Assembly: GCA_963774955.1 (NCBI GenBank)
Contig: CAVZGV010000004.1
Span: 383,779-447,778 of the forward strand
DNA: 64,000 nucleotides
Origin: Candidatus Falkowbacteria bacterium
GTDB taxonomy: Bacteria; Patescibacteriota; Patescibacteriia; CAIXNZ01
Direction: 5' to 3'
Part shown: in pieces, positions 1,116-22,409 of the stretch
How positions within the stretch are numbered: position 1 is the stretch's first letter
Layout: every line of letters begins with the position of its first letter
The notes under the pieces: generated by a model
The model's database searches: none
What the model was told of the DNA's origin: nothing
What the model saw: the letters and a program-made list of their open reading frames with translations, nothing else
Translations under genes and position numbers: made by a program

Positions 1116-4100
1116 ATGAGAACTTCAAAAAACAAATTTAAAATATATCTGGCTGTAGTCTCTCTGGCTGCTATGCTTATAAGTACGGCAGGCGCGTCTG
1201 CTGCCACCAGGATCGGCAGCAATATAAACTCTGCCGGTGATCTGACTGTTGACGGTGCTTTGAAATTTACTTCAGGCGCTGCTAACAATTATGTTTTAGC
1301 CAGTGATGCCAGCGGTAATGCCGCCTGGATTTCAGTGGCCACTCTTTTAGATTCTTCTCATGCCAATGTGACTACTAATGATCTGGATGAAGGCACTCTT
1401 AATTTATATTATGATTCGGCAGATGTTGAGACCAGAATTGATAATCGTAGTGGTATTGTCGGTGGTTTTGCTCCGCTTGATGCAGGGTTAAAGGTTCCAA
1501 GTTCATATTTGCCAAATTTAGTAATTACCAATGTCTATGCAGTTGCGGATATTGCTGCCAGGGACTTATTGACCGTTGAAGAAGGCGATGTGGCTGTGGT
1601 TGCTGATGCCGGTTTGTTAGAAAGCCGTTCTTATATTTATGACGGCACAGGCTGGCTGGAATTGAAAGCTCCGGTTGATTTATATTTAGCCGCCGCAAAT
1701 GATCTTTCAGATTTAGGCAATTTCGCTACTGCCAGAACTAATTTGGGTATTGGGACTACAGATATCCCCGAGTTTAACGGTTTGACTTTAAATAGTCTGA
1801 CAGCTGATTCATTTATTTATTCCGGCACGGGTGGATTACTTACCTCAACTGCTGCTCCTTTAGACGGGGAGTTGCTCATTGGTGTTGCTGGCTCGTCTCC
1901 GGTAGTGGCAACTTTAACAGGTACCACAAATCAGGTAGATGTAACCAATGGCGCAGGCTCCATAACTTTATCAACTCCACAAGATATAGATACTAGTGCA
2001 AGTCCACAATTCACAGGCTTAACTTTAAGCGGTACAACACTTTCAATTAACGGAATCGCTTATGCTTGGCCAGCTGCTGATGGCGCCTTGGGGGATGTTT
2101 TAACTACTGACGGTGCCGGCGCTTTAACCTGGACAACTGTGGCCGGTGCAGGTGAAACAAACACAGCTTCAAATGTTAATGTTGGCGGTCAGAGTTTATT
2201 TAAACAAAAAACAGGGGTAGACTTGGAATTCAGGGGCATTAATGCCGCTTCCAATAAGATAGGTATTGCGCTAGATGACCCGAATAATGAAGTAACAATT
2301 GATGTTAATGAAGCTAATTTAACTTTAGATAATCTCGGCGGAACTTTGAGTGAAACTCACGGTGGTACCAATCTGACAACTTATACTAGCGGCGATATTT
2401 TATATGCTTCGGCCGCAGATACTTTAAGTGCCTTACCAATAGGTGGTACTGATGGTTGGGTTTTAACAGTTAATACTGGTGCTCCGGTTTGGCAGGCTTT
2501 ACCTGGGGCAGGAGCAGAAACAGATCCGGTCTTTACTGGAAGCTTTACAGCCGCCGGTGATTTGTTAGTCGGTACAGGAGCAGGAACATATACTGCCGTT
2601 ACAGACGGTACTTCCGGCCAATTTTTAACTACTAACGGTTCAGGCGCTTTGAGCTGGGCAGCAGAAACAGATCCGGTGTATACAGCGTGGGATAAATCAA
2701 CCGGCATATCAATAACCGAATCACAAATATCAGATTTGCAGGCGTATCTGACATCAGAAACAGATTCTGTCTTTACTGGAAGTTTTACAGCCGCCGGTGA
2801 TTTGTTAGTCGGTACAGGAGCAGGAACATATACTGCCGTTACAGACGGTACTTCCGGCCAATTTTTAACTACTAACGGTTCAGGCGCTTTGAGCTGGGCA
2901 GCAGAAACAGATCCGGTGTATACAGCGTGGGATAAATCAACCGGCATATCAATAACCGAATCACAAATATCAGATTTGCAGGCGTATCTGACATCAGAAA
3001 CAGATTCTGTCTTTACTGGAAGTTTTACAGCCGCCGGTGATTTGTTAGTCGGTACAGGAGCAGGAACATATACTGCCGTTACAGACGGTACTTCCGGCCA
3101 ATTTTTAACTACTAACGGTTCAGGCGCTTTGAGCTGGGCAGCAGAAACAGATCCGGTGTATACAGCGTGGGATAAATCAACCGGCATATCAATAACCGAA
3201 TCACAAATATCAGATTTGCAGGCGTATCTGACATCAGAAACAGATTCTGTCTTTACTGGAAGTTTTACAGCCGCCGGTGATTTGTTAGTCGGTACAGGAG
3301 CAGGAACATATACTGCCGTTACAGACGGTACTTCCGGCCAATTTTTAACTACTAACGGTTCAGGCGCTTTGAGCTGGGCAGCAGAAACAGATCCGGTGTA
3401 TACAGCGTGGGATAAATCAACCGGCATATCAATAACCGAATCACAAATATCAGATTTGCAGGCGTATCTGACATCAGAAACAGATTCTGTCTTTACTGGA
3501 AGCTTTACAGCCGCCGGTGATTTGTTAGTCGGTACAGGAGCAGGAACATATACTGCCGTTACAGACGGTACTTCCGGCCAATTTTTAACTACTAACGGTT
3601 CAGGCGCTTTGAGCTGGGCAGCAGAAACAGATCCGGTGTATACAGCGTGGGATAAATCAACCGGCATATCAATAACCGAATCACAAATATCAGATTTGCA
3701 GGCGTATCTGACATCAGAAACAGATTCTGTCTTTACTGGAAGTTTTACAGCCGCCGGTGATTTGTTAGTCGGTACAGGAGCAGGAACATATACTGCCGTT
3801 ACAGACGGTACTTCCGGCCAATTTTTAACTACTAACGGTTCAGGCGCTTTGAGCTGGGCAGCAGAAACAGATCCGGTGTATACAGTGTGGGACAAATCAA
3901 CCGGCATATCAATAACCGAATCACAAATATCAGATTTGCAGACATATGCTCTAAGTGGAGCAAATGGAGACATTACCAGTTTAACCGGGTTGACTACTGC
4001 TCTTGGTCCGACTTATGGCGGTACTGGTTTAGCTACTTATGCTTTAGGCGATATTTTATATGCTTCAGCAGCTAATACTTTATCAGCCTTATCTTCAGGC

Positions 4101-7100
4101 GGAGCTGGTACATATTTGAAATCAGATGGTGCTGGCGGCTTAACTTGGGCTACTCCGGCTGGTAGCGGTACTATTACTGCTGTTGGTGATATAACCACAG
4201 GAGCCGCGTTTACACCTACAGCAGGCGCAGATGGCAATAATTTGTATTTTGAAGGCACAACCGGAAACGGTTTTGAAGTTAATCTGACAGCAGCAGATCC
4301 GGGATCAGATGTGATAGTGACAATCCCTGCAACAACCGGCACATTATTATTGAATACAAATAATTTATCTGACGTATCAAATACAGGAACAGCCAGGACA
4401 AATTTAGGTTTAGGCACGGGAGACAGCCCGCAATTTACAGGATTAACACTGACAAGCGATGAAACATTAAATGCACAGTCAGATTTACGGTTGGCAGATG
4501 CTGATTCATCAAATTGGGCGGCATTCCAGGCGCCAACGACAATTTCTACAAATTATACCTTGACTTTGCCGGCAGATGACGGGACAGCAGGACAATGTTT
4601 GACAACAAGCGACGGCACAGGGACATTAGCCTGGGCAGCTTGCGGAGCTGGAAGTGGAGCAGATACAGCATTATCAAATCTGGCATCAGTAGCCATTAAT
4701 ACATCATTATTACCGGGTACAACAGAATCAATAGCTTTAGGATCAGATTCATTTAACTGGTTGAATTTATACTTAGGGAATGGCGGAGTAGTTTTTGAAG
4801 GCGCAACAGGGGGAGTGGATACAAATGAGACTACCTTGGTAGTGACAGACCCGACAGCAGACCGGACAATAACCTTACCTAATGCAACAGGCACAGTATT
4901 ATTAAATACAAATAATTTATCGGATGTATCAAATACAGGAACGGCGAGAACAAGTTTAGGGTTGGGCACGGGAGATAGCCCGCAATTTACCGGATTAACA
5001 TTAACAAGCGATGAGACATTAAATGCACAGTCAGATTTACGGTTTGCAGATGCTGATTCATCAAATTGGGCAGCTTTCCAGGCGCCAACGACAATTGCAT
5101 CAAATTATACCTTGACCATGCCGGCAGATGACGGCACAGCGCTCCAGTTTTTACAGACTGACGGAAGCGGCGTTTTATCCTGGGCAACCCCAACAGTTAC
5201 ATCTGTAGCCTTTAGTGGCATAACTAATGGCATAAATACAACAGCCACTATGACGGTCGGAAGCGGAGCAACTTTAGCACCGTCAGGAACTGGTATAATA
5301 ACTGCTACCAGATATACAGGGTCAGGTTCTTCAACTAATGAAGTTGACTTAGGAACAGCAGAGGTAGCCGGTACTTTAACCGTAGTTAAGGGCGGTACGG
5401 GAATAACTGATTTTACTGGGGCGACTGGTAGTTTACCTTATTTTAATTCTGAAACTACTATGGATTTTACAAACGCCGGTACTAATAATAAATTCCTTAA
5501 AGGCGTCACAGGAGGAGCTCCAGCTTTTGCTTCAGTCGATTTGAGCAGTCCGGATGTGACAAGCACTTTGCCTATTGTTAGAGGTGGTACTGCTGCTACT
5601 ACGATAGGATCTGCTGGCAGAGTTGTATATAGTACAGGTACGGCTTATGGCACTTCCAGTGCCACAACCGAATTGGGACATATACTTATTTCAGGTACAA
5701 GTGGCACTGGTGCTCCGTCCTGGTTGGCTCAGGGTGCATCGGGGCAATTACTAGTATCAGGTGGGACAAATGTAGCACCGACTTGGACTTCCTTAGGTAG
5801 TGTACCAACTACGTCAAATAATGATGCTACTTTGCGTTCCAATGGTTCAGCTTGGGTTGAAAATACCTCCGTATTGATAAGTTCAACTGGAGGGATATCA
5901 TCCGCGAACGGTTCAGCCCTAACCATAAATTCTGGAACTACGGGTGATTTGGGGATTGGAACGGATGCAAGTATTGAAAATATAAATATAGGTACTGGTG
6001 GTGCCACTAAAACTATTATTTTTGGCAACAGTACTGGAGCAACCTCAGTTGCTATAAATACTGGTACCGGAGCATTAAATCTGGGAACGAATGCAATCGC
6101 TCATATCACAACATTGGGTTCTATAACAGGTGCCGCTTCAACCATAGTTCAATCAGGAACCGGTGACCTTAAAATTGAGACCCAGGGTACTGGCGGTTTA
6201 AAAATTGGTACTAATGCAGTAGCACAGAATATTACAATCGGCAACGGAACCGGAGCAACATCGCTTGTCTTAGAGGCTGGTACAGGCAATATCGATATTG
6301 GTAGCAATGATATTGCCAGGAGTATAAATATAGGTCAAACCTCTACAGCAGCTCAGGCTATTACCATAGGTAATGGTAATACAGGCACAGCAGTGGATAT
6401 AAAAGTCGGTACAGGAGCCTTAAATTTAGGGTCAAATGCTACAGTTCATACTACCACTTTAGGTTCAAATACTAGCACCTCAACCACTACAGTTCAATCA
6501 GGAACCGGCGGACTTAATTTAACTTCTGCAAGTACAGGTATAATAACCCTAGATTCGGGAACCACTGGTAGGATTGATATAGGAACTAATACTGGTGGCA
6601 AGACTATTAATATCGGGACAGGAGCAGCAGCTAATACCCTTAATATTGGTAATAATACTAGCGGCACAGGTACGTATATCAAAGCTGGAAACACCGGCAT
6701 TAATATATCAACTGGCGGGGCAGGGAATATAGACATATTGACTGACTCAACTGGTACTATGCACATTGATACAGGTACATCAGGTACGATAAATTTTGGA
6801 ACTGGCGATAGCGGAAAAACTATTAATATTGGTACCGGTAATGTCGCCAATACAATTAATATTGGTAATTCATCCTATGCTACTGCAATTCAGTTATATG
6901 GTACTGGCGGTGTAAAAATCGGCTCATCGAGTAGCACTGCGATTTTAAATCATTATTCTGGTACAGCTTCTCTGGATTTTGGCGCCACTGCTGCTAATAC
7001 CTGTGATGCCGCCACCATAACAGTGACTGGCGCTGCTGACGGAGATACTGTTACTCTTGGTGTACCTGCTGCTTTAGCCGGAAGCGATGCTAGTCAGAAT

Positions 7101-7217
7101 TTTTGGGGTTACGTAAGTGCTACAAATACTGTTACTGTAAAAAGATGTAATGTAACTGGTTCACCTTTAAGTGATCCTGCAGCTGCTACAGTACGCGCAG
7201 ATGTTTGGAAACACTAG
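1116..7217 (+). CDS. Giant secreted fibrous repeat protein (2033 aa), tail-fibre/adhesin-like
   Basis: Single uninterrupted ORF with an N-terminal signal peptide (cleavage likely after ASA). G/T/S/A-rich throughout. Recurrent motif G..GQ.LTT.GSGALSWA, six identical 80-aa tandem repeats, and a second diverged duplication (~aa 1070-1160 vs 1260-1345). The C-terminal region has 14-15-aa beta-helix-like repeats (TINIGTG..ANT.NIGN). Confidence 0.85.
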   Translation: MRTSKNKFKIYLAVVSLAAMLISTAGASAATRIGSNINSAGDLTVDGALKFTSGAANNYVLASDASGNAAWISVATLLDSSHANVTTNDLDEGTLNLYYDSADVETRIDNRSGIVGGFAPLDAGLKVPSSYLPNLVITNVYAVADIAARDLLTVEEGDVAVVADAGLLESRSYIYDGTGWLELKAPVDLYLAAANDLSDLGNFATARTNLGIGTTDIPEFNGLTLNSLTADSFIYSGTGGLLTSTAAPLDGELLIGVAGSSPVVATLTGTTNQVDVTNGAGSITLSTPQDIDTSASPQFTGLTLSGTTLSINGIAYAWPAADGALGDVLTTDGAGALTWTTVAGAGETNTASNVNVGGQSLFKQKTGVDLEFRGINAASNKIGIALDDPNNEVTIDVNEANLTLDNLGGTLSETHGGTNLTTYTSGDILYASAADTLSALPIGGTDGWVLTVNTGAPVWQALPGAGAETDPVFTGSFTAAGDLLVGTGAGTYTAVTDGTSGQFLTTNGSGALSWAAETDPVYTAWDKSTGISITESQISDLQAYLTSETDSVFTGSFTAAGDLLVGTGAGTYTAVTDGTSGQFLTTNGSGALSWAAETDPVYTAWDKSTGISITESQISDLQAYLTSETDSVFTGSFTAAGDLLVGTGAGTYTAVTDGTSGQFLTTNGSGALSWAAETDPVYTAWDKSTGISITESQISDLQAYLTSETDSVFTGSFTAAGDLLVGTGAGTYTAVTDGTSGQFLTTNGSGALSWAAETDPVYTAWDKSTGISITESQISDLQAYLTSETDSVFTGSFTAAGDLLVGTGAGTYTAVTDGTSGQFLTTNGSGALSWAAETDPVYTAWDKSTGISITESQISDLQAYLTSETDSVFTGSFTAAGDLLVGTGAGTYTAVTDGTSGQFLTTNGSGALSWAAETDPVYTVWDKSTGISITESQISDLQTYALSGANGDITSLTGLTTALGPTYGGTGLATYALGDILYASAANTLSALSSGGAGTYLKSDGAGGLTWATPAGSGTITAVGDITTGAAFTPTAGADGNNLYFEGTTGNGFEVNLTAADPGSDVIVTIPATTGTLLLNTNNLSDVSNTGTARTNLGLGTGDSPQFTGLTLTSDETLNAQSDLRLADADSSNWAAFQAPTTISTNYTLTLPADDGTAGQCLTTSDGTGTLAWAACGAGSGADTALSNLASVAINTSLLPGTTESIALGSDSFNWLNLYLGNGGVVFEGATGGVDTNETTLVVTDPTADRTITLPNATGTVLLNTNNLSDVSNTGTARTSLGLGTGDSPQFTGLTLTSDETLNAQSDLRFADADSSNWAAFQAPTTIASNYTLTMPADDGTALQFLQTDGSGVLSWATPTVTSVAFSGITNGINTTATMTVGSGATLAPSGTGIITATRYTGSGSSTNEVDLGTAEVAGTLTVVKGGTGITDFTGATGSLPYFNSETTMDFTNAGTNNKFLKGVTGGAPAFASVDLSSPDVTSTLPIVRGGTAATTIGSAGRVVYSTGTAYGTSSATTELGHILISGTSGTGAPSWLAQGASGQLLVSGGTNVAPTWTSLGSVPTTSNNDATLRSNGSAWVENTSVLISSTGGISSANGSALTINSGTTGDLGIGTDASIENINIGTGGATKTIIFGNSTGATSVAINTGTGALNLGTNAIAHITTLGSITGAASTIVQSGTGDLKIETQGTGGLKIGTNAVAQNITIGNGTGATSLVLEAGTGNIDIGSNDIARSINIGQTSTAAQAITIGNGNTGTAVDIKVGTGALNLGSNATVHTTTLGSNTSTSTTTVQSGTGGLNLTSASTGIITLDSGTTGRIDIGTNTGGKTINIGTGAAANTLNIGNNTSGTGTYIKAGNTGINISTGGAGNIDILTDSTGTMHIDTGTSGTINFGTGDSGKTINIGTGNVANTINIGNSSYATAIQLYGTGGVKIGSSSSTAILNHYSGTASLDFGATAANTCDAATITVTGAADGDTVTLGVPAALAGSDASQNFWGYVSATNTVTVKRCNVTGSPLSDPAAATVRADVWKH
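2515..3955 (+). repeat. 6 x 240-bp essentially identical tandem repeats inside the giant gene (each encodes 80 aa, ETDPVFTGSF...QAYLTS)
   Basis: Direct reading shows period 240, with 'gaaacagat(c/t)c(g/t)gtctttactgga' recurring at 2517, 2757, 2997, 3237, 3477 and 3717. Only synonymous or near-synonymous differences are seen in the first and last copies. Confidence 0.9.
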
Positions 7218-10703: not shown

Positions 10704-10777
10704 CAGGGGATAGCTTAAGTAAAGCGCCAAAACTACCCTTTTGGAGACTGTTGGTTCAAATCCAGCTCCCCTGACCA
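10704..10777 (+). tRNA. tRNA gene, isotype undetermined (anticodon arm cannot form a 5-bp stem with a 7-nt loop)
   Basis: Acceptor CAGGGGA/UCCCCUG, U8A9, T-arm GUUGG-UUCAAAU-CCAGC, encoded ACCA. The anticodon region CCAAA-ACUACCCU-UUUGG gives an 8-nt loop (or a 6-bp stem with a 6-nt loop). The D-loop lacks GG. Confidence 0.5.
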
Positions 10778-11078: not shown

Positions 11079-11087
11079 GGCCCAGAG

Positions 11088-11114
11088 AAAGCTCCCTTCA
11101 CCGGGAGCTTTTTA
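11088..11114 (+). terminator. Rho-independent terminator
   Basis: aaagctccc-ttcacc-gggagcttttt. Confidence 0.55.
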
Positions 11115-11411: not shown

Positions 11412-13085
11412 ATGTTGAGCAGTAAAAAATTAAAAGATATATTAATCAAGCCTGGTTATGTCAAAGAGGCTGATTTTGAAGTGGCTGCTGCTGACGCCAA
11501 AGCCAAAAAAATTAGTCTAGAACAATCATTGGTTGAAAACAATTTACTTAAGGATGAATACTTGGGCCAATTGATTGCGGATAGCCTTAAGTACCGTTTA
11601 GTAAATTTAACAAAAAAAGCAATTGTCCCCGAAGTTTTAAGATTGATTCCAGAGTTAGTAGCTAAAAAACAGCTCATCGTTGCTTTTGCCAAAGATAATG
11701 AAGGGTTACATTTGGCCATGAATGAACCGGATAATTTACAGTTACAACATTTTATTGCCAAAAACACCGGAGAAAAAATTATTACTTATTATGCAACTCC
11801 CAAGGATATACTGAAAGCAATTAGCCTGTATCATAAGGAATTAAAACAAGAATTTTCTGAAATTGTTTTAAAAAATTTAAGTGAGATTAAGGCGGATAAT
11901 AAAGAACAATTGCCGATTATTAAAATAGTAGAGTCATTAATTCAGTATGCTTATGAAAATCGAGCTTCTGATATTCATATTGAGCCTCATGATGAGGATA
12001 CACTGATTCGTTTCCGCATCGACGGCGTCTTACATGATGTTTTGGCCATACCCAAAAATTACCATGATTTGATAGTCTCCCGAGTTAAAATTATGTCTAA
12101 TTTAAGGACTGATGAGCATAAAAGCAGCCAGGACGGTAAAATCCGATTTAATCTGGCTGAAGAAAAATTAGATATACGCGTATCAATTTTACCGATTGTT
12201 GAGGGCGAGAAAATTGTGATGAGACTTTTAGCAAAAAAATTGCGTCAGTTGAATCTGGATAATTCTGGTTTAAATCCCAAGGATGTAAAAAAGGTCAAAA
12301 AAGCCATCAAAAGTCCCTGGGGCATGATATTGGCCACCGGTCCGACGGGCAGCGGCAAGACAACAACCTTATATTCAATATTAAAACTGTTAAATTCTCG
12401 AGATATTAATATTTCCACCATTGAAGATCCGGTAGAATATGATGTTGACGGTATTAATCAAATCCAGGTCGATGTGGAAACTAATTTAACTTTTGCCAAG
12501 GGGTTGCGTGCGATTTTGCGCCAAGATCCGGATGTGATCATGGTTGGTGAAATTCGTGATGAAGAAACCGCTAAAATAGCCATAAATTCAGCGATGACCG
12601 GCCATTTAGTTTTATCTACTTTGCATACCAATGATTCAGCTACCGCCTTGCCACGTCTTTTAGATATGAAGGTCAAACCATATTTGATTGCCTCTACAGT
12701 TTTAATGGTAATTGCCCAGCGTTTGGTCAGAAAAATTTGTCCGAATTGCATTGCAAGTTATAACCTGTCAGCTGAAGAATTTGGTAAGTTATTGCCCAAA
12801 GGCATGGCAGCAAAATTTATTGACGGCAAAAAGAATGTTACCCTTTATAAAGGTGAAGGCTGCAAGTTGTGTCATAAAACCGGGTATACTGAACGTCTGG
12901 GAATCTTTGAGGTTTTAGAAGTAAGCCAAACTATTCGCGATTTAATTGTGGCCAAAGCAACTAGCCAGGACATAAAAAAACAGGCAATTTCCGAGGGTAT
13001 GACAACGATGCTGGAAGACGGGATGGAAAAGGTTTTTATGGGCCAGACTACTTTGGAGGAGATTTTAAGAGCAACTAAGGAATAA
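11412..13085 (+). CDS. pilB: Type IV pilus assembly ATPase PilB (GspE family)
   Basis: Walker A GPTGSGKTTT, Asp box and His box, plus a C-terminal CxxC...CxxC tetracysteine. 557 aa. Confidence 0.9.
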   Translation: MLSSKKLKDILIKPGYVKEADFEVAAADAKAKKISLEQSLVENNLLKDEYLGQLIADSLKYRLVNLTKKAIVPEVLRLIPELVAKKQLIVAFAKDNEGLHLAMNEPDNLQLQHFIAKNTGEKIITYYATPKDILKAISLYHKELKQEFSEIVLKNLSEIKADNKEQLPIIKIVESLIQYAYENRASDIHIEPHDEDTLIRFRIDGVLHDVLAIPKNYHDLIVSRVKIMSNLRTDEHKSSQDGKIRFNLAEEKLDIRVSILPIVEGEKIVMRLLAKKLRQLNLDNSGLNPKDVKKVKKAIKSPWGMILATGPTGSGKTTTLYSILKLLNSRDINISTIEDPVEYDVDGINQIQVDVETNLTFAKGLRAILRQDPDVIMVGEIRDEETAKIAINSAMTGHLVLSTLHTNDSATALPRLLDMKVKPYLIASTVLMVIAQRLVRKICPNCIASYNLSAEEFGKLLPKGMAAKFIDGKKNVTLYKGEGCKLCHKTGYTERLGIFEVLEVSQTIRDLIVAKATSQDIKKQAISEGMTTMLEDGMEKVFMGQTTLEEILRATKE

Positions 13086-13163
13086 AATTGGTAAAATGAC
13101 AAATAACAAAATTTAAAAATCAAAAAAATATCAAATATCAAAATTTAAATAACAAATAGGAAC

Positions 13164-14285
13164 ATGGGTAAAATTTTAAGCGCCTTGAGTGAAAAAAGGC
13201 GCTGGGAATTTAAAAATTGGAATTGGCATATCAATTTTGGCTTCAATGTTGAGAAAATTTTATTTGCCAAAACTTTGGCAACTTTATTACGTTCTAAAAT
13301 CAATATTGCTGACTCCTTGGTTATCTTGGAAGCGCAATTTTCCGGGAGTTTTAAACAAGCAGTCGGTGCTGTAAGGAAAGATGTGGAAAACGGTCAGACG
13401 TTATCCAGCGCTTTGGCCAAACATCCAAAATATTTTAATAAAATTTATGTTGGCCTGGTTAATGTCGGTGAAAAAAGCGGTCGTTTAGTCGAGTGTTTGC
13501 AAAGAGTTGCGAAACAGCAGGAAAAAGATTTGCAATTATCACGCAGTATCCAGGCAGCGTCTTTATACCCGGCCATTATTTTTATCTGTTTAGCTGGTTT
13601 GGCAGCCTTATTAAGTTATTATATCTTGCCTCAGTTGATTATTGTTTTTACCTCTTTTAATATGCCATTGCCATGGACGACTCTGGCCTTGTTATGGTTA
13701 GCTGAATTTATCAGGCAATATGGCCCATTACTTCTGATTTTAATAATTGCGGGTATTTTACTTTTTCGCTTTTTGGTTAACCAAGAAAAAATTAGGCCTC
13801 ATTGGCAGGGTTTTTTAATCAGCCTGCCGTTTTTGGGAGAACTTTTGAAAAAATGGAATCTGGCGCGCTTTTGCCGGATTTTAGGCACATTATTGGAAAG
13901 CGGTGTTTCTATTCACGAAGCATTAGATACTGCAATTGAAAGTTTGAGTAATGAAGTCTACAGAAATTTATTGAAAAAAGTTAAGGCCAAAGTATTGGGT
14001 GGCTTGTCTTTGGGTGAGGCTATTGAAACTTTATATAAAATTGATATTTTCCCGCGGTTTGTTTTTCAGTTAATTAGTGTCGGTGAACGAACCGGTACGC
14101 TGGAAGAAAACTTAATTTATCTGGCTGAATTTTACGAGGATGAAGTGGAAAATATCAGTAAAAACATGGCCAGCATTATTGAACCGGTTTTATTAATTGT
14201 TATCGGTATTATAGTGGCCGTGATTGGTTCCGCGATTATTTCGCCGATTTATGAGTTTATCGCTACCCTGAGCGAAAGCCTCTAA
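13164..14285 (+). CDS. pilC: Type IV pilus inner-membrane platform protein PilC (GspF family)
   Basis: Two GspF-like repeats, three TM segments and conserved ..GE.SG.L. motifs. Confidence 0.85.
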   Translation: MGKILSALSEKRRWEFKNWNWHINFGFNVEKILFAKTLATLLRSKINIADSLVILEAQFSGSFKQAVGAVRKDVENGQTLSSALAKHPKYFNKIYVGLVNVGEKSGRLVECLQRVAKQQEKDLQLSRSIQAASLYPAIIFICLAGLAALLSYYILPQLIIVFTSFNMPLPWTTLALLWLAEFIRQYGPLLLILIIAGILLFRFLVNQEKIRPHWQGFLISLPFLGELLKKWNLARFCRILGTLLESGVSIHEALDTAIESLSNEVYRNLLKKVKAKVLGGLSLGEAIETLYKIDIFPRFVFQLISVGERTGTLEENLIYLAEFYEDEVENISKNMASIIEPVLLIVIGIIVAVIGSAIISPIYEFIATLSESL

Positions 14286-14380
14286 AAAAGTCTAAAGGCT
14301 AATTTATAAAGTCTGAGTTAATAAATAAAAAACTTCCATAATTTAGACTTTAGCCTTTATACTTTAGACCTATTATTTTT

Positions 14381-14809
14381 ATGAACAAAGGTTTTACTTT
14401 AATTGAGTTGATAATTGTTATTTGCATTTTTTTATTGTTAGGCGCAATTTTTTGGCCGATAGGCGCTAATTTTTTCAGCCAAGAATTGGCCAGTAAAGGT
14501 CAGCAACAAATTATCTGGATTTTAAAACAAGCTCGGGCCAATGCCATAAATCAAAAAAATAATTCTGCTTTTGGTGTCTATCTGGAAAAAGGCCAGGCCA
14601 CTTTATTTCAGGGAGATAATTACACCGATAGAATCACAAGCGAGGATATAATTTACACTCTGCCAAAGATTGTAACTATTGTTGATTTAAACGAAATTGT
14701 TTTTGAGCCCAATACCGGTCAAGTTTCTACTCCGGGGACAATTAAACTTAATAGTCCGTCCTTAAGCAGAGAAATTGTGATCAACCAGCTGGGAGTTATT
14801 GATTATTAA
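14381..14809 (+). CDS. Prepilin-type N-terminal cleavage/methylation domain protein (pseudopilin)
   Basis: MNKG|FTLIELIIVICIFLLLG leader plus hydrophobic helix. Confidence 0.75.
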   Translation: MNKGFTLIELIIVICIFLLLGAIFWPIGANFFSQELASKGQQQIIWILKQARANAINQKNNSAFGVYLEKGQATLFQGDNYTDRITSEDIIYTLPKIVTIVDLNEIVFEPNTGQVSTPGTIKLNSPSLSREIVINQLGVIDY

Positions 14810-14816
14810 ATTTAAT

Positions 14817-17657
14817 ATGAATTATCGAAATAAACAAAAGGGTTTTTCTCTGATCGAGATTTTAATCGGGCTTGGTATTTTCGCTGTTATTTTTATTGGA
14901 GTCAGCTACCTGATGATTGATAATTTGCAGGCCAGTTTTGATAATCAGGAAAAAATAAAGGCTGATTTTTTAGTAGCTGAAGGTTTAGAGGCTGTTAAAG
15001 CTATTGCCGGTAATGATTGGGATCAAATCAAGCCAGGAATTTACGGTTTACAATTGAATAATAATCAATGGCAACTGGTAACTGAACCAGAGCAAGTAGT
15101 CCAAATGGCTAAAAAAGGTGAACGGGTTATTACCATCTCCGATGTTTCAGATAATAATATTAAAAAAATTGAAAGCGTTGTTGTTTGGCAGAGTATGACT
15201 GATAAAATAAAATCAAGCAGCGCTGTCACTTTATTAACTAATTGGCGGGGATATGTTTCAATTTGTGCTGACGGTCTTGATAATGATGGTGACGGCTTTG
15301 CTGATTTTCCTGAAGATCCCGGTTGCAGTACTGCTACTGATGAGGACGAATATAATTCTCCGTCAAGTGAGGATTCATTTCAATGTTCTGATGGTGATGA
15401 TAATGATGGTGACGGTAATATAGATTACCCCAATGATCCCGGTTGCAATTCAGCATTTGATAATGACGAGACAGATCCTTTAAATCCGCCTCAATGTTCA
15501 GATAATATAGATAATGACGGTGATGGTACTGTTGATTATCCTGATGATGCGGGTTGCGATTCAGCAGTTGATAATGACGAGACAGATCCTTTAAATCCGC
15601 CTCAATGTTCAGATAATATAGATAATGACGGCGATGGTTTCATTGATTATCCTAAGGATCCTAATTGCGATTCAGCCAGCGATGACGATGAAAGCCAATT
15701 GCCGGATTTGCCGGTTTGTTCCGACGGCCAAGATAATGACGCTGACGGTTTGGTTGATTATCCGGATGATCCAGGTTGCAGTTCTGCAAATGATGATAAT
15801 GAAGTTGACCCCAATAACCCCTCAGATTTACCAGGCTGTTCTGACGGCCAAGATAATGACGCTGATGGCTTCATTGATTATCCTGATGATCCCGGTTGTA
15901 GTTCTGCTGATGATGATAGTGAAGTTGACCCCAATAATCCCTCAGATTTACCAGTCTGTTCCGACGGTTTAGATAATGACGCTGATGGTTTGATTGATTA
16001 CCCGGCTGATCTCGGTTGCGATTCAGCTGATGATAATAATGAAATTAACGCCGAAGTAATGCCTGGCTGTGGTAATGGTATAGTTGAAGAAGATGAAGAA
16101 TGCGATGATGGTAATACCCAAAACAATGATGGCTGTTCCAACCAGTGTGAAACTGAAGCTGCTCCCGGCACAATTTGCGGTAATGGTGTAGTTGAAAATT
16201 CAGAAGAATGTGACAATCAGGCCTTACCTAATGGTTGTAATAAAAAATATGAATCATGTCAGAATAATTGTAAATGCAAAGTGCCAATATGCCACGCGAC
16301 AGCTTCTGAAAAAAATCCTTATGAAATGATTTGGGTAAGCTACAATGCTGTTGATGGTGAGGGTAATAATGATCATTCTCATCACCCCGAAGATATTATC
16401 CCTATTTGGGATATTAATAAAGATGGCAGTCTTGATGATGACGATTGTTTAACCGCCGCCGCCGAAAATTGCATAGGCTTGAATCAGGAGCAAAATTGCC
16501 AAGCAGTTACCCCAGATGTAGTTTTTGACAATGAAGATACCCCGTTATGTCAACTTGAAGAAAGCTCAATTATGGTTACAGGCAAGGTGGTTTTACCGGC
16601 TGGTACAACAGCAAAGTTACAGCTGTCTTATTATATTGTTTGGCCAGAAGATAAAAGGACTGAAATTACTTACGTTAATAAAGGTTTAGTAAATGATGGT
16701 GATACTTTTTCCTTGACAACTCCTTGGCCCGGTGTCAGGCCAGCTGAGATAAAAGTTGAAACTCATATTGGGGCCATGCTTTTAGACCTAATTACAGGCA
16801 ATCCTTTGATGGCCAATGGTTCCAGCTTGGATTATTACTGGTATCCTTGGGTTTGTCCGGCACCGCAAACTGAATGTTCGGATGCGATTGATAATGATGG
16901 TGACGGCAAAATTGATTACCCAGCTGATTCCGGGTGTTATGGAGATGATGATGACGGCGAATTCGGCAGTTGCACTGACAGCGATCATGACGGGTATAAT
17001 ACACCGGGATCAGGCTGCATCCCGACAGTGACCGTGCAAAACAATGGCAATATCAAGGCGCCTAAAGGCACAATGAATTTTAAAGTGATCACTTCTCAAA
17101 TTACTAATGGCGCTGGCGGATCGGAAATTTTTGTCAAAACAGCTTTGAAGATAAACAGCAATTTGACTTGGCTATTTGCGGGACAAGATGTTGATGGCGG
17201 AGAAGAATATAATACTATAATTGCTGATAATACCAATATTGCAGTCAGAGGTCAGGCTTGGTATCAAAATTCTTTTAATAGCCAGTATGATTCTGATACC
17301 AATACCAACTATGTTAAAGTTTTAACTAAAGGCAGTAGTTTGCCCAATGTGCCGCGTTTTGGTTCGCAGCAGCCGTTATCAGAAGTCTTAGCGGCGTTTG
17401 TTGATGCCGACCGTAAAATAGATATTGATGTCAATCAGGTTTTAATAATCTGGGAATTAGGTGTGACAGATTTACGATCTGAAGCCGCTGATTTCCAGGA
17501 TTTAGTGGTATTACTGACTTTTGGTCCGGAAACGTTGCCTTACTGTACCTGCGGACCTTTTGACTGTGATGATACTAACGCTAATATTAATCCAGGTCAG
17601 CCGGAAATTCTAGGCAATAACGTCGATGATAATTGCAACTTTTTTGCCGACGAATAA
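14817..17657 (+). CDS. Pilin-domain fusion protein: prepilin N-terminus + ~9 MopE/TSP3-like metal-binding repeats + Myxococcus-type cysteine-rich repeats; candidate pilus-tip adhesin
   Basis: Leader MNYRNKQKG|FSLIEILIGLGIF. Repeated C(S)DGxDNDGDGxxDYPxDPGC units. CGNGIVEEDEECDDGNTQNNDGCSNQCE motif appears twice. The ATG at 14817 is chosen over the TTG at 14799 used by the ORF track because it gives a canonical prepilin leader. Confidence 0.75.
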   Translation: MNYRNKQKGFSLIEILIGLGIFAVIFIGVSYLMIDNLQASFDNQEKIKADFLVAEGLEAVKAIAGNDWDQIKPGIYGLQLNNNQWQLVTEPEQVVQMAKKGERVITISDVSDNNIKKIESVVVWQSMTDKIKSSSAVTLLTNWRGYVSICADGLDNDGDGFADFPEDPGCSTATDEDEYNSPSSEDSFQCSDGDDNDGDGNIDYPNDPGCNSAFDNDETDPLNPPQCSDNIDNDGDGTVDYPDDAGCDSAVDNDETDPLNPPQCSDNIDNDGDGFIDYPKDPNCDSASDDDESQLPDLPVCSDGQDNDADGLVDYPDDPGCSSANDDNEVDPNNPSDLPGCSDGQDNDADGFIDYPDDPGCSSADDDSEVDPNNPSDLPVCSDGLDNDADGLIDYPADLGCDSADDNNEINAEVMPGCGNGIVEEDEECDDGNTQNNDGCSNQCETEAAPGTICGNGVVENSEECDNQALPNGCNKKYESCQNNCKCKVPICHATASEKNPYEMIWVSYNAVDGEGNNDHSHHPEDIIPIWDINKDGSLDDDDCLTAAAENCIGLNQEQNCQAVTPDVVFDNEDTPLCQLEESSIMVTGKVVLPAGTTAKLQLSYYIVWPEDKRTEITYVNKGLVNDGDTFSLTTPWPGVRPAEIKVETHIGAMLLDLITGNPLMANGSSLDYYWYPWVCPAPQTECSDAIDNDGDGKIDYPADSGCYGDDDDGEFGSCTDSDHDGYNTPGSGCIPTVTVQNNGNIKAPKGTMNFKVITSQITNGAGGSEIFVKTALKINSNLTWLFAGQDVDGGEEYNTIIADNTNIAVRGQAWYQNSFNSQYDSDTNTNYVKVLTKGSSLPNVPRFGSQQPLSEVLAAFVDADRKIDIDVNQVLIIWELGVTDLRSEAADFQDLVVLLTFGPETLPYCTCGPFDCDDTNANINPGQPEILGNNVDDNCNFFADE
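15270..16050 (+). repeat. Tandem ~120-126-bp coding repeats (DNDGDG...DYP.DPGC units) inside the pilin-fusion gene
   Basis: Near-identical stretches recur, e.g. 'ccgcctcaatgttcagataatatagataatgacgg' at ~15486 and ~15597. Confidence 0.7.
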
Positions 17658-17669
17658 AAATAAATCTTT

Positions 17670-18170
17670 ATGAGTAAAATAAACAATCAGGGTTTTACTT
17701 TAATTGAAACCGTAATTTATATTGCTTTACTGGCTATAATTATTATTTTCCTTGTTTCTTTCTTTTCGCAGGCCACATTTATTAAAGGTAAAATTAATGA
17801 ACGACTGGATAATCTGGATAATGCACAATATGCGCTGGATCGCATGACGTGGTATTTGCAAAATAGTCTTGAAATTACCGAGCCTTTGGCAGGCCAAACC
17901 TCAGAAACCCTGGTAATGAATTCGCTGGTTTCTCAAAAAAATCCTGTAAAATTTTATATTGAAGATAAAAAATTAAAAATGCAAATAGGCGATGAGGCCC
18001 CGCTTAATTTGACCAATAATCGGTTGGACATTAAGGAAATATCATTTTCCAGTCAGGGTTTTGTAAATCAACCCGCCTTGATTCAGATTAGACTGACGGT
18101 TCAGGGTAATCACAGTCTGTGGCAAACCCAGCCATTGACTCTGCAAACCTCGGTAAAATTAGAAAAATAA
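17670..18170 (+). CDS. Prepilin-type N-terminal domain protein (pseudopilin)
   Basis: MSKINNQG|FTLIETVIYIALLAIIIIFLV. Confidence 0.75.
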   Translation: MSKINNQGFTLIETVIYIALLAIIIIFLVSFFSQATFIKGKINERLDNLDNAQYALDRMTWYLQNSLEITEPLAGQTSETLVMNSLVSQKNPVKFYIEDKKLKMQIGDEAPLNLTNNRLDIKEISFSSQGFVNQPALIQIRLTVQGNHSLWQTQPLTLQTSVKLEK

Positions 18171-18183
18171 TCAAATTATTAAT

Positions 18184-18585
18184 ATGAAATTAAGAAAGAT
18201 CCCAAACGGTTATATTGCCCTGATGACATTGATAATGATTGGCGCGATCGTTTTGATTGCCGTAATTGCCCTGACATTTATGGCTGTCAGTCAGAGTAAT
18301 TTTATCATTAGTCATAATAAGACGGTAAAAAATTATTATGCCGCCAATGCTTGCGCTAATTATGCAATTTTAAAACTTCAAAAAAGCGAGGAATATTCCG
18401 GTAACGAAACAGTGGATATTGATAATATTAAATGTAAGATCGAGGCAGTCAGTCCGGCAGGTGAGCTTGGAAGAGTGTTTATTGTCAGCAGTCAGGAGGG
18501 TAATCAATTAAAAAAAATAAAAGTGGAACTTGATCAGGTTAAACCCGTAACCATAATTAAATCCTGGGCTGAGATTTTCGAATAA
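18184..18585 (+). CDS. PilX-like minor pilin / pilus assembly protein with N-terminal TM
   Basis: Hydrophobic N-terminus (GYIALMTLIMIGAIVLIAVIALTF) similar to the PilX N-terminal domain. Sits inside the pilus operon. Confidence 0.45.
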   Translation: MKLRKIPNGYIALMTLIMIGAIVLIAVIALTFMAVSQSNFIISHNKTVKNYYAANACANYAILKLQKSEEYSGNETVDIDNIKCKIEAVSPAGELGRVFIVSSQEGNQLKKIKVELDQVKPVTIIKSWAEIFE

Positions 18586-18609
18586 ATTATAAATTTTTAA
18601 CTATTTTGT

Positions 18610-19686
18610 ATGGGTATTCTCAAGAATCTGGGGGAGAAGTTTTTAAATCATAAATTCCCTATGGTTGGTGTTGATATTTCCGACTCTTCCATTGAATTAA
18701 TGCAGCTGCGTGCAGGCCTGCAGCAACCGAAAATTAAAGCAGCGTATCGCGTAGAATTGCCGGAGGGCCTGATAGAGAAAGGCAGGATTTTGGATGTCGA
18801 TAAATTGGCGGAAATATTAAAAAAAGCTTTTAGCGCAGGCGAGTTTGTCAATAATTATTGTCTGTTATCTCTGCCTGATAAAGAAACTTTTTTTATAAAT
18901 TTAAAGCCAAATCAGGAGGCTGTTGATATAGAGGCCGCTATTTACAAGCAGGCTGAAGAAAGTTTGCCGGTGGAATTTAGCAAATGCTTAAGCGATTACC
19001 AGCTTGGTAGTGATAAGGAGGCTTTTTTTGTGGCTGCGCCAAAGGAGATTATTAGCCAGTATGTTGATTTGTTTAAAAAAGCGCAGTTAAATTTAGAAGT
19101 TGTTGACTTTGAGTCGGCTTGTTTAGCCCGGGCATTTTTAGGAAGTGAAAAACTAAACGAAGCAATTTTTATTATCGATTTGGGCGCAAAATCGACCGAT
19201 ATTCTGCTCTTGGATCAAAACGGCTTTGAAGACCAGATTAATATTGCCAGTGGCGGCTTCTTTCTAAATCAGAAAATAGCCGAGAATTTAAAAATTAATT
19301 TGAGACAAGCTGAGGAAATTAAAGTAAAACAGGGCTTAAAAAAATCTGATCTTAACGAACAGCAAATTATGGAGGAAATTTTCGGGCCGGCTATTTCTGA
19401 AATTAAAAATATGTCCGATGATTATGAAGCTAAACATAACCAAAAAGCCAAACATATTCTTTTGGCCGGTGGATCTAGTCAATTAAAGGGACTTGATGAT
19501 TTTTTTAAGTTGCAACTGTCTGATTTTAAGATTGAAAAAGGCTCTCTGGAAGCCGTTGTTGATTTTAAAGACTTTGCTCCTAAAATTGATAAAATCTTGT
19601 ACGCTAATGTGGTTGGTCTGGCTTTAAGGGGACTTTCTGCCGGTAGTTTAAATAATGGAATCAATTTAATTAAAAATTTAGTATAA
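18610..19686 (+). CDS. pilM: Type IV pilus assembly protein PilM (actin-like ATPase fold)
   Basis: VGVDISDSSIELMQL start, size 358 aa, pilus-operon context. Confidence 0.75.
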   Translation: MGILKNLGEKFLNHKFPMVGVDISDSSIELMQLRAGLQQPKIKAAYRVELPEGLIEKGRILDVDKLAEILKKAFSAGEFVNNYCLLSLPDKETFFINLKPNQEAVDIEAAIYKQAEESLPVEFSKCLSDYQLGSDKEAFFVAAPKEIISQYVDLFKKAQLNLEVVDFESACLARAFLGSEKLNEAIFIIDLGAKSTDILLLDQNGFEDQINIASGGFFLNQKIAENLKINLRQAEEIKVKQGLKKSDLNEQQIMEEIFGPAISEIKNMSDDYEAKHNQKAKHILLAGGSSQLKGLDDFFKLQLSDFKIEKGSLEAVVDFKDFAPKIDKILYANVVGLALRGLSAGSLNNGINLIKNLV

Positions 19687-19692
19687 AAAATT

Positions 19693-20130
19693 ATGTTCAA
19701 ACAAAAAGGTTTTACACTTATTGAACTTTTAGTGGTCCTAGGTATTATTGCTATTTTGGCCGCTATTGTCATTATCGCGGTTAATCCCGCCAGACAGTTT
19801 GCTATTTCTAGAAATACTGTTCGGGAGGCCAATGTCAATTCAATTTTGAGCGCATCCTGGCAATATGCCATTGCCAATCAGGGTAATTTACCCGCTGCAA
19901 TTACAGAAACATCTAATGAGATTTGTAAGACGGAAGCCGTAAGTTGTGCCGGTCTGGTTGATTTATCGGTTTTGACGGAAGATGGTATGTATATTGTAAA
20001 AATTCCCGAAGATCCGACTTCTAAGTCTGGAAATGGTACTGGTTATTTCATTCAAAAAATGACTAATGGCCGTTTGAAAGTAACAGCCCCAAGTGCAGAA
20101 TTAGATGATGTTATTGAAGTTCAGAATTAA
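19693..20130 (+). CDS. Type IV pilin (candidate major pilin)
   Basis: MFKQKG|FTLIELLVVLGIIAILAAIVIIAV. 145 aa, last gene of the operon. Confidence 0.75.
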   Translation: MFKQKGFTLIELLVVLGIIAILAAIVIIAVNPARQFAISRNTVREANVNSILSASWQYAIANQGNLPAAITETSNEICKTEAVSCAGLVDLSVLTEDGMYIVKIPEDPTSKSGNGTGYFIQKMTNGRLKVTAPSAELDDVIEVQN

Positions 20131-20170: not shown

Positions 20171-20212
20171 TTTAAAAAAAACCTCGGGAAAGTTCCCGAG
20201 GTTTTGTTTTTA
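20171..20212. terminator. Bidirectional rho-independent terminator between the pilin gene (+) and the L,D-transpeptidase gene (-)
   Basis: aaaaaaaacctcggg-aaagtt-cccgaggttttgttttt. Confidence 0.6.
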
Positions 20213-21559: not shown

Positions 21560-21910
21560 ATGATTAAAAAAATTGTAGTTTGTGTTTTTTTAGGGACAAT
21601 TTTATTCGGTTTAGTTGGTTGCCAAAATTCAGATTCAGGCAAAATGATTTTTTATTACAGCTTGACCTGTCCGCATTGTAAAAATGTAGAAAAATATATT
21701 GAAGAAAATAATGTTAAGGCTAAAGTTACCTTTGAAGCTAAAGAAGTTTCAGAAAACAAGGATAATGCCGCTGAATTTGCAGATAAAGTAGCAAAGTGCG
21801 GAATCAAGCCTGAAGAAGCAGGAGTCCCTTTGTTTTGGGACGGCTCTACCTGTTTTGTCGGCGATGAACCAATAATTAATTACTTTTTTACCAAAATTAA
21901 TGAAAAATAA
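21560..21910 (+). CDS. Thioredoxin-fold lipoprotein (CPHC active site), DsbA/glutaredoxin-like
   Basis: Lipoprotein signal LVGC followed by YYSLTCPHCKNVEKY. Confidence 0.6.
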   Translation: MIKKIVVCVFLGTILFGLVGCQNSDSGKMIFYYSLTCPHCKNVEKYIEENNVKAKVTFEAKEVSENKDNAAEFADKVAKCGIKPEEAGVPLFWDGSTCFVGDEPIINYFFTKINEK

Positions 21911-22409
21911 ACTTTTATATCTATTGGCAATATATGCCAGCTTTTTAATTGCCAAGCCGTCTTTAGCGGTTTGTCCGGTTTGCGCTGTAGCAGTCGGAGC
22001 AGGCTTGGGATTTTCACGTTGGCTGGGCGTTGATGATTTGATTACTGGTAGCTGGGTCGGCGGTGTTTTAGTAACAATCAGTTGGTGGACAGTTGAATGG
22101 TTGAACAGCAAACAGATTAAATTCAAAGGCCGAAAGATTTTAATAACATTAGCTTATTACTCATTGACCATAGTGCCTTTGTATTATATAGGTATTATGG
22201 GGCACATATATAATCAATTTTGGGGCATTGATAAATTGCTTTTAGGCATAATTGTCGGTACTGTCGGTTTTTTTGGGGGATCAATGCTAAATCTATGGCT
22301 AAAAAAGAAAAATGGGGGTAAAGTATATATAAAGTTTCAAAGAGTCTTAATTCCGGTAGCTATTTTGCTTTTAATTAGTTTAGCCTGGTACTTAATTTTA
22401 ACAATTTAA
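21900..22409 (+). CDS. Integral membrane protein with CPVC motif (possible disulfide-bond partner of the upstream thioredoxin-like protein)
   Basis: 4-5 TM helices. AVCPVCAVAVG motif near the N-terminus. Overlaps the upstream gene stop by 11 nt. Confidence 0.45.
   Translation: MKNKLLYLLAIYASFLIAKPSLAVCPVCAVAVGAGLGFSRWLGVDDLITGSWVGGVLVTISWWTVEWLNSKQIKFKGRKILITLAYYSLTIVPLYYIGIMGHIYNQFWGIDKLLLGIIVGTVGFFGGSMLNLWLKKKNGGKVYIKFQRVLIPVAILLLISLAWYLILTI

Follow-up and report, generated by a model that had tools for sequence, protein, structure and literature searches.

A modular minor pilin with a repeat stalk and two beta-sandwich domains in a type IV pilus operon of Candidatus Falkowbacteria

Modular pilins were defined as a class by Raynaud et al. 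(2021, PMC8179133), who recorded 1,219 of them in 264 architectures and presented PilB of Streptococcus sanguinis, which has been shown to be a tip-type adhesin. The same survey names modular pilins from the Candidate Phyla Radiation (CPR), namely from Falkowbacteria, Magasanikbacteria and Wolfebacteria (PMC8179133). In Saccharibacteria TM7x, accessory domains are found on the large minor pilins PilX1 and PilX2; both are candidate tip adhesins, and efficient binding to the host requires PilX2 (PMC11623550). CPR pili lack PilQ (PMC6744442). In this study, we analyzed a 64,000-nucleotide stretch of a Candidatus Falkowbacteria bacterium (assembly GCA_963774955.1, contig CAVZGV010000004.1, positions 383,779–447,778), designated here as the window, and characterized a pilus operon (11412–20130) that encodes a 946-aa protein with a pilin N-terminus. 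The operon probably specifies a monoderm-style type IV pilus of Parcubacteria (CPR), with the 946-aa protein as a modular minor pilin and likely a tip adhesin.

Members of the CPR (Patescibacteria) live in obligate or near-obligate partnership with other cells. To our knowledge, no attachment machinery other than type IV pili has been demonstrated experimentally for CPR bacteria, and these only in Saccharibacteria; we know of no cultures of Parcubacteria. A conserved, module-shuffled tip pilin would therefore be a concrete candidate for host recognition in Parcubacteria.

Like PilB of S. sanguinis, with its vWA module, and PilC, with its lectin module, the 946-aa protein links a small class III pilin module to effector modules in a monoderm pilus system without a secretin, and a tip adhesin is proposed in each case. 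The modular pilins of Raynaud et al. consist of two modules, whereas the present protein has eight, with an NF033662 stalk and two domains (Domains A and B) without a Pfam or NCBIfam match as its distinguishing features. Their table does not contain this architecture: IPR021655, the MopE motif, is found there solely behind IPR006860, and PF18884 appears once (PMC8179133). TM7x PilX1 and PilX2 resemble the 946-aa protein in that they are the largest minor pilins of a CPR pilus and bear accessory C-terminal domains. However, PilX2 combines a beta-propeller with a non-canonical signal, while here a canonical GFxxxE signal precedes a repeat stalk and two beta-sandwiches; moreover, the TM7x loci include pilT, pilD, pilN and pilO, which the window does not. 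CofB and TcpB of type IVb pili and ComZ of Thermus are likewise large minor pilins with extra beta-rich domains (discussed in PMC8179133); no sequence or fold match to CofB, TcpB or ComZ was found for the domains of the 946-aa protein.

A first-pass annotation, made from the sequence of the window alone, had held that the fusion is not a standard annotated family. This is true of the domains, but modular pilins, including those of CPR bacteria, and secretin-less CPR pili have been published (PMC8179133, PMC6744442, PMC11623550), and the novelty is thus lower than that annotation implied. Secretin-less CPR pili, the idea of a pilin-adhesin fusion and the operon type are already known. What is new is the eight-module build, the presence of an NF033662 stalk on a pilin, the two domains without a Pfam or NCBIfam match and the repeated association of Domain B with filament subunits in Bacteria and Archaea alike.

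Organization of the pilus operon

The genes between 11412 and 20130 are all on the forward strand with intergenic gaps of 6–95 nt and are arranged in the order pilB, pilC, a GspH-like minor pilin gene, the 946-aa pilin gene, a minor pilin gene, a 133-aa PilX-like gene, pilM and a 145-aa pilin gene (Table 1). This order and the coordinates given in the first-pass annotation agree with the map of open reading frames (ORFs), and the operon assignment is backed by scans with Pfam and NCBIfam hidden Markov models (HMMs) and their curated cut-offs, on which our family assignments are based. Strong terminator-like hairpins flank both ends, and the region is a single terminator-bracketed operon. An assembly ATPase, a platform protein, PilM and pilins, which together mark a monoderm type IV pilus, are encoded side by side (Pfam and NCBIfam).

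The assembly ATPase scored about 530 bits with the GspE and PilB equivalog models of NCBIfam, below their cut-offs, and 258 bits with ComGA (cut-off, 300). Membership in the Com (ComG) competence-pilus family was rejected, given that all of its equivalogs stayed below cut-off, including ComGB (152 against 240 bits); the ComGC–ComGF models were all far under their cut-offs, and the GspE/PilB models outscored the ComG ones. Likewise, identity with a type II secretion system (T2SS) was rejected, as there is no secretin and no GspL/M and the host is a monoderm.

A row of four pilin-like genes that opens with a GspH-like one and closes with one whose product lacks Glu5 recalls GspH-I-J-K of the T2SS and FimU-PilV-PilW-PilX of type IVa pili. 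In these classical tip complexes it is the fourth subunit (K/PilX) that is enlarged, whereas here the second is enlarged, the PilX-like protein is minimal (133 aa) and there is no PilY1. The first-pass annotation had called the 133-aa protein PilX-like. Its ORF gave no Pfam or NCBIfam match, even at E ≤ 5, but it aligned by profile-profile comparison, and by that alone, to the N-terminal modules of PilX-like proteins that carry Domain B (hhalign probability 82%, E 1.1e-5). It has an N-terminal helix after NG/YIAL (the slash marks the end of the leader) without Glu5 and is kept in both syntenic loci described below. The 145-aa protein of the last gene has the highest N_methyl score in the operon, and its gene is the only canonical GFxxxE gene in the window other than that of the 946-aa pilin.

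In agreement with the first-pass annotation, pilQ, pilD, pilT, pilN and pilO were not found among the ORFs of the 64-kb window, as judged from translations read by eye and Pfam scans of unassigned ORFs, and no Peptidase_A24-like ORF was detected there. PilN/PilO and PilT are also absent from the two syntenic loci and may be encoded elsewhere in the genome.

Table 1. Features of the pilus operon, modules of the 946-aa pilin and a possible accessory gene pair (window positions; a slash marks the end of the leader)
Feature	Position	Strand	Evidence
Terminator-like hairpin, closes upstream unit, 5' operon boundary	11086–11113	+	11-bp stem then T-run
pilB, type IV pilus/T2SS-family assembly ATPase, 557 aa, MshEN N-terminal domain	11412–13085	+	PF00437 (T2SSE) E 2.6e-130; PF05157 E 5.9e-12
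pilC, platform protein, 373 aa	13164–14285	+	PF00482 (T2SSF) E 2.1e-55, two stretches
Minor pilin, GspH/FimU/ComGD-like, 142 aa	14381–14809	+	N_methyl E 2.4e-5; GspH E 9.6e-5; ComGD E 1.3e-8 (below cut-off)
Modular minor pilin, 946 aa, whole gene, ATG at 14817	14817–17657	+	ORF map, HMM scans
Pilin carrier module, aa 1–148, leader MNYRNKQKG	14817–15260	+	N_methyl E 4.4e-8 on module alone
Acidic stalk, aa 149–417, seven tandem C-x-DNDGDG-xxDYP-x-D-x-GC repeats, acidic linkers	15261–16067	+	NF033662, regular expression, DNA tandem arrays
Cysteine-rich repeats (CGNG..E.CD type), aa 418–491, one canonical and one degenerate	16068–16289	+	TIGR02232 E 3e-11; DUF4215 E 2e-6
Small Cys/His motif module, aa 492–556, ICHATASEKNPY...NDHSHHPEDIIP	16290–16484	+	Motif; kept in some orthologs
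Domain A, aa 557–686, seven-strand immunoglobulin (Ig)/CARDB-like beta-sandwich ending YYWYPWVCP	16485–16874	+	AlphaFold2 (AF2) model
Eighth acidic repeat and MopE-like CTDSDHDGY unit, aa 687–734	16875–17018	+	Regular expression
Domain B, aa 735–908, beta-sandwich with ITYGAGGP, DVDGGE, NQV..ELG and ADFQDLVVL motifs	17019–17540	+	AF2, phmmer
C-terminal MopE-type Cys/Asp motif, aa 909–946	17541–17654	+	PF11617
Minor pilin, 166 aa	17670–18170	+	N_methyl E 5e-6; weak ComGE and ComGF matches
PilX/GspK/ComGG-like pilin-like protein, 133 aa	18184–18585	+	hhalign match with N-terminal modules of PilX-like proteins
pilM, actin-like assembly protein, 358 aa	18610–19686	+	PF11104 (PilM_2) E 4e-25; TIGR01175 E 1e-30 (below cut-off)
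Candidate major pilin, 145 aa, MFKQKG/FTLIELLVV	19693–20130	+	N_methyl E 8.9e-10
Terminator-like hairpin, operon 3' end	20178–20205	+	12-bp stem then T-run
Possible accessory pair: thioredoxin-fold lipoprotein (CPHC) and membrane protein (CPVC)	21560–22409	+	Thioredoxin_4, Glutaredoxin matches

Modules of the 946-aa pilin and their distribution

The 946-aa protein, which is present in identical form in public data (P0001), begins with the leader MNYRNKQKG followed by FSLIEILIGLGIFAVIF. This is a textbook class III signal: the leader ends in Gly, the FSLIE motif supplies Glu5 and a hydrophobic helix ensues. PF07963 (N_methyl) matched with 29.3 bits against a cut-off of 21.2, and TIGR02532 with 20.3 against 16.3, which bears out the canonical prepilin leader and helix described in the first-pass annotation. 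PF11617 and TIGR02232, the other two models that this annotation had named for HMM searches, also scored above their cut-offs. The whole pilin module shows homology to the stand-alone pilins P0345 and P0346 (145 and 149 aa), both of which end in TNWRG and stop exactly where the graft in the 946-aa protein starts; the search for homologs of the module, carried out through a word index, gave three proteins. When compared with the Protein Data Bank (PDB), the profile of the module matched the N-terminal helices of pilins only, and its I/J/K class is not assignable from these matches. Behind N_methyl lie NF033662, TIGR02232, PF13948 and PF11617, so that the protein falls under the definition of a modular pilin. 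Judged by its sequence, it is an ordinary small pilin onto which a stalk and two beta-sandwiches appear to have been grafted C-terminally, giving eight successive modules. The whole protein contains 187 Asp/Glu, 42 Lys/Arg, 38 Cys and 6 His.

The stalk alone accounts for 84 of the acidic residues and for 14 Cys, with a single Lys/Arg. About nine repeats had been counted in the first-pass annotation; there are nine DxDxDG loops, but only eight strict C..DNDGDG..DYP.D.GC repeats, found by regular expression at aa 150, 190, 227, 264, 301, 341, 381 and 687 (seven in tandem and one apart), while the ninth is a degenerate DSDHDG unit. In the DNA, the stalk repeats form true tandem arrays with periods of 111 and 120 nt and 85% match. 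The label MopE/TSP3-like holds at the level of the motif, and PF11617 does match the C-terminal 30 residues (31.4 bits against 27, solely at aa 916–946), a match that is uninformative on copper binding; TSP3 is unmatched, and copper binding is unsupported. Identity with TSP3 was rejected because PF02412 and PF18884 gave no match at E ≤ 0.01, the DxDxDG motif being all that is in common, and identity with copper-binding MopE was rejected because the PF11617 match is single and terminal. On sequence grounds, NF033662, the acidic double-disulfide repeat, is the curated family that fits the repeats (70 bits against 41, five stretches). The stalk is probably stiffened by Ca2+.

As for the two Myxococcus-type cysteine-rich repeats that had been reported, TIGR02232 (42.9 bits against 20.8) and DUF4215 (28.4 against 27) recognized one copy each; the second repeat (aa 454–487) is degenerate, and only one passes the HMM. 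The small Cys/His module that follows gave no Pfam match. A similar ICH.PPGNP..H motif was seen in the Domain-B proteins P0134, P0135 and P0137, and a short Cys/His motif (ICH-x-T/P...NP...H...H-x-D) is common to the large pilin and to unrelated PilX-like Domain-B proteins (P0134, P0135, P0137 and P0246).

Domain A was modeled by AF2 from 23 homologs with a mean predicted local distance difference test (pLDDT) score of 94.5 and a predicted template modeling (pTM) score of 0.84, and no Pfam or NCBIfam model searched here matched it. The domain also occurs in secreted or anchored surface proteins that are not pilins and have Pro/Thr-rich linkers, one of which is labeled Roseiflexaceae and another of which has an LPKTG anchor.

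Domain B was modeled with equal confidence (pLDDT 94, pTM 0.90). Its top Foldseek match in the PDB is weak, namely the PA-IIL-type lectin BclA (2vnv; E 1.1e-3, TM 0.44/0.56); thrombocorticin and C2 domains are other weak matches, and C2 scores nearly equal that of BclA. The PA-IIL/LecB lectins and Domain B are both small beta-sandwiches in which conserved acidic residues directly precede the last strand, but they show no sequence similarity. Comparison of the Domain B profile with PDB sequences found nothing (best E 0.19), and Domain-B members gave no Pfam match over the domain, even at E ≤ 5. A resemblance to DUF4114 is backed by one weak match only, to a DUF4114 protein among the viral folds. 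The conserved acidic motifs DVDGGE, E..G and ADFQD and the weak PA-IIL likeness would be compatible with a head that binds glycans in a Ca2+-dependent manner.

Domain B is widespread: when 1.84 billion cluster representatives were searched exhaustively with phmmer, 470 clusters matched it at E ≤ 1e-3, including 125 with E ≤ 1e-10. The domain, of about 170 residues, occurs at the C-terminus of four classes of filament subunits: GFxxxE pilins, PilX/GspK-like, TadE/G-like and archaeal pilins. Among 94 members, the only recurrent Pfam families were pilin N-termini (Pilin_N in 9, N_methyl in 7, PilX_N in 6 and Tad/TadE in 2). A lenient regular expression found pilin-type N-termini (bacterial class III, PilX-like or archaeal) in at least 58 of 122 non-truncated members, and we judged by eye that the true fraction is nearer two thirds; at least about 15 proteins have ordinary Sec signal peptides. 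The PilX-like genes P0137 and P0145 sit within typical minor-pilin clusters, each of four or five genes, and next to an archaeal Domain-B gene is a second Pilin_N gene. Named members, from a Deltaproteobacteria MAG (metagenome-assembled genome) and a Lindowbacteria MAG, are annotated as hypothetical proteins. In an unrelated metagenome contig (L004, 5243–7269), a 240-aa PilX-like gene without Domain B directly precedes a 422-aa paralog with it, as if a tip pilin had been duplicated and only one copy bore the head domain.

Because the 133-aa ORF of our operon aligns with PilX-like N-terminal modules and lacks Glu5, the PilX-like subunit is minimal here and Domain B is on a different minor pilin. 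We consider it possible, though doubtful, that Domain B represents an ancient and so far unannotated component of type IV filaments, a tip-adhesin cassette shared by Bacteria and Archaea that in this lineage has been transferred away from the PilX-like subunit and onto a different minor pilin. If the association with pilins holds, Domain B would add a recognizable adhesin head to pilus annotation. Domains A and B are well folded in the models and open to expression and ligand tests.

About 15 full-length relatives of the 946-aa protein were found in Parcubacteria/Falkowbacteria MAGs, all annotated as hypothetical. Two Parcubacteria MAGs from Lac Pavin (L001 and L002) have the same eight-gene order followed by the same YkuD gene, with large pilins of 858 and 752 aa, and related MAGs preserve the four-gene minor-pilin block around the 946-aa gene. 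Identity in the pilin module ranges from 33% to 82% among 16 family members, whereas the cargo comprises 0–8 acidic repeats, 0–3 MopE-type units and 0–2 cysteine repeats, with Big_2 repeats in one member. Domain A is present in most members and Domain B in about two thirds, the others having an unrelated C-terminal domain. The combination of a conserved pilin with variable repeats and C-terminal domains is a pattern typical of adhesins, and it would be expected if a carrier pilin bore an exchangeable effector cassette. In P0004, P0005 and P0011 (L002, 9983–12241), Domain B is replaced by a C-terminal domain of about 150 aa with the pattern CGT..N.Y...C...IKI.NNN..GLS...YSIKF.TIG, for which no family match was found.

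Proposed role and alternative explanations

In the model that follows, the entry of the 946-aa protein into the pilus, its location at the tip, its binding of Ca2+, its role as an adhesin and the kind of ligand are all inferred. PilB, PilC and PilM would polymerize the 145-aa pilin of the last gene, and the four pilin-like proteins encoded between pilC and pilM (GspH-like, 946-aa, 166-aa and 133-aa PilX-like) would form the priming complex that ends up at the pilus tip. There, the 148-residue pilin module would anchor the 946-aa subunit in the filament, and the acidic, disulfide-clamped stalk of about 270 residues, probably stiffened by Ca2+ and followed by cysteine-rich spacers, would hold Domains A and B off the tip, where they may bind a ligand on a host cell or surface. 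The tandem DNA repeats would offer a simple route to varying the length of the stalk. A tip adhesin, as already suggested in the first-pass annotation, is the best-supported function because the gene lies within a conserved four-gene minor-pilin block, its module is homologous to stand-alone pilins, its other modules are shuffled and Domain B is found on PilX-like pilins elsewhere.

Several observations weigh against this function. The 946-aa protein has Glu5 and its 133-aa neighbor does not, so the very tip subunit may be the small protein instead. The fold matches of Domain A are generic (macroglobulin (MG) domains of C3, carbohydrate-binding module (CBM), CARDB and RhoGDI) and those of Domain B marginal (TM 0.44–0.56), indicating no specific ligand for either, and Domain B is not confined to pilins, as members with Sec signals attest. 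In addition, pilD, pilT, pilN and pilO were not found in the window, so that processing and retraction are putative.

The first-pass annotation had left the choice between DNA uptake and host attachment by a CPR pilus. Host attachment is favored, and the link to competence is weak. It is improbable that the operon encodes a competence pilus whose large pilin is a DNA receptor, like ComZ in Thermus or other DNA-binding minor pilins. CPR bacteria must scavenge nucleotides, and competence genes occur alongside their pili (PMC6744442), a ComEC-type gene is present at 69–923, and the minor pilins have weak ComGD, ComGE and ComGF matches. However, with its excess of Asp/Glu over Lys/Arg, in the stalk (84 against 1) as in the whole protein, and a net charge near -145, the large pilin is unsuited to DNA binding; the Com equivalogs all stay below cut-off, GspE/PilB models give the ATPase a better score than ComGA does, and the ComEC-type gene belongs to another transcription unit 10 kb upstream. 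DNA could still be taken up by the whole pilus through other subunits.

Rather than entering an extended pilus, the 946-aa protein might be a surface protein that uses the pilin-type signal merely for anchoring or export, like archaeal class III substrates or the subunits of a short pseudopilus. Its size would be bulky for the assembly machinery, Domains A and B are also found on Sec-exported and sortase-anchored proteins and the window has no retraction ATPase. We nevertheless regard this as unlikely, since the conserved pilB-pilC-...-pilM-pilin operon places the gene among those of minor pilins, the protein has kept Glu5 together with an entire pilin module that shows homology to small pilins, and modular pilins of at least 50 kDa have been shown to enter pili (PMC8179133). 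A MopE-type protein that binds or scavenges copper while displayed on the pilus is very improbable. The "putative metal-binding motif" PF11617 is above cut-off and MopE-like units occur in orthologs, but the match covers a single 30-residue motif, the copper site of MopE lies outside the PF11617 motif, the NF033662 repeats carry oxygen ligands (DxDxDG) that fit Ca2+ over Cu and the protein has only 6 His. A modular pilin acting as tip adhesin is the function that we prefer.

Neighboring genes in the window

The ComEC-like metallo-beta-lactamase (MBL) domain that the first-pass annotation placed at the start of the window is encoded at 69–923. It corresponds to the C-terminal domain of ComEC (TIGR00361 E 6e-38, below cut-off), has an N-terminal membrane anchor and is a separate 284-aa protein rather than part of a full-length ComEC. 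Between this gene and the pilus operon are a gene for a 2033-aa protein, ndk, two tRNA genes and a terminator. The 2033-aa protein (1116–7217) is secreted, with a signal peptide and a Gly/Thr/Ala-rich composition, and has no Pfam family; in its gene, a 240-nt (80-aa) unit is repeated 5.9 times in tandem with 99% identity at 2515–3941. The gene lies just upstream of the pilus region, and its product may be a fibrous protein of the cell surface. We found no evidence that ties this protein or the MBL gene to the pilus operon, both being in separate transcription units. One of the tRNA-like genes (10704–10777; Rfam tRNA, 50 bits), which adjoins tRNA-Val, has an abnormal anticodon loop and no assignable anticodon according to ARAGORN.

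The remaining genes of the window encode ribosomal proteins, SecY, Adk, Map, pyrimidine synthesis enzymes, rubrerythrin and similar products. The reading frame of fusA, which encodes EF-G, falls into five or more segments, and that of aspS is likewise broken (30184–32269 and 58330–59715), which points to assembly indel errors or pseudogenes. Other frames in the window thus warrant caution, while the ORFs of the pilus operon are intact.

Located 1.4 kb downstream of the operon is a pair of genes for a thioredoxin-fold lipoprotein (21560–21910) and a membrane protein (21900–22409), the latter of which gave no family match. Both proteins and both CxxC motifs are kept at the same position in L001 (16294–17225). 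The pair could be a disulfide-forming system for the pilin, whose 38 Cys would allow 19 potential disulfides, and its membership in the pilus system is putative. Oxidoreductases of this kind are reported to be enriched near pilin genes in CPR bacteria (PMC6744442).

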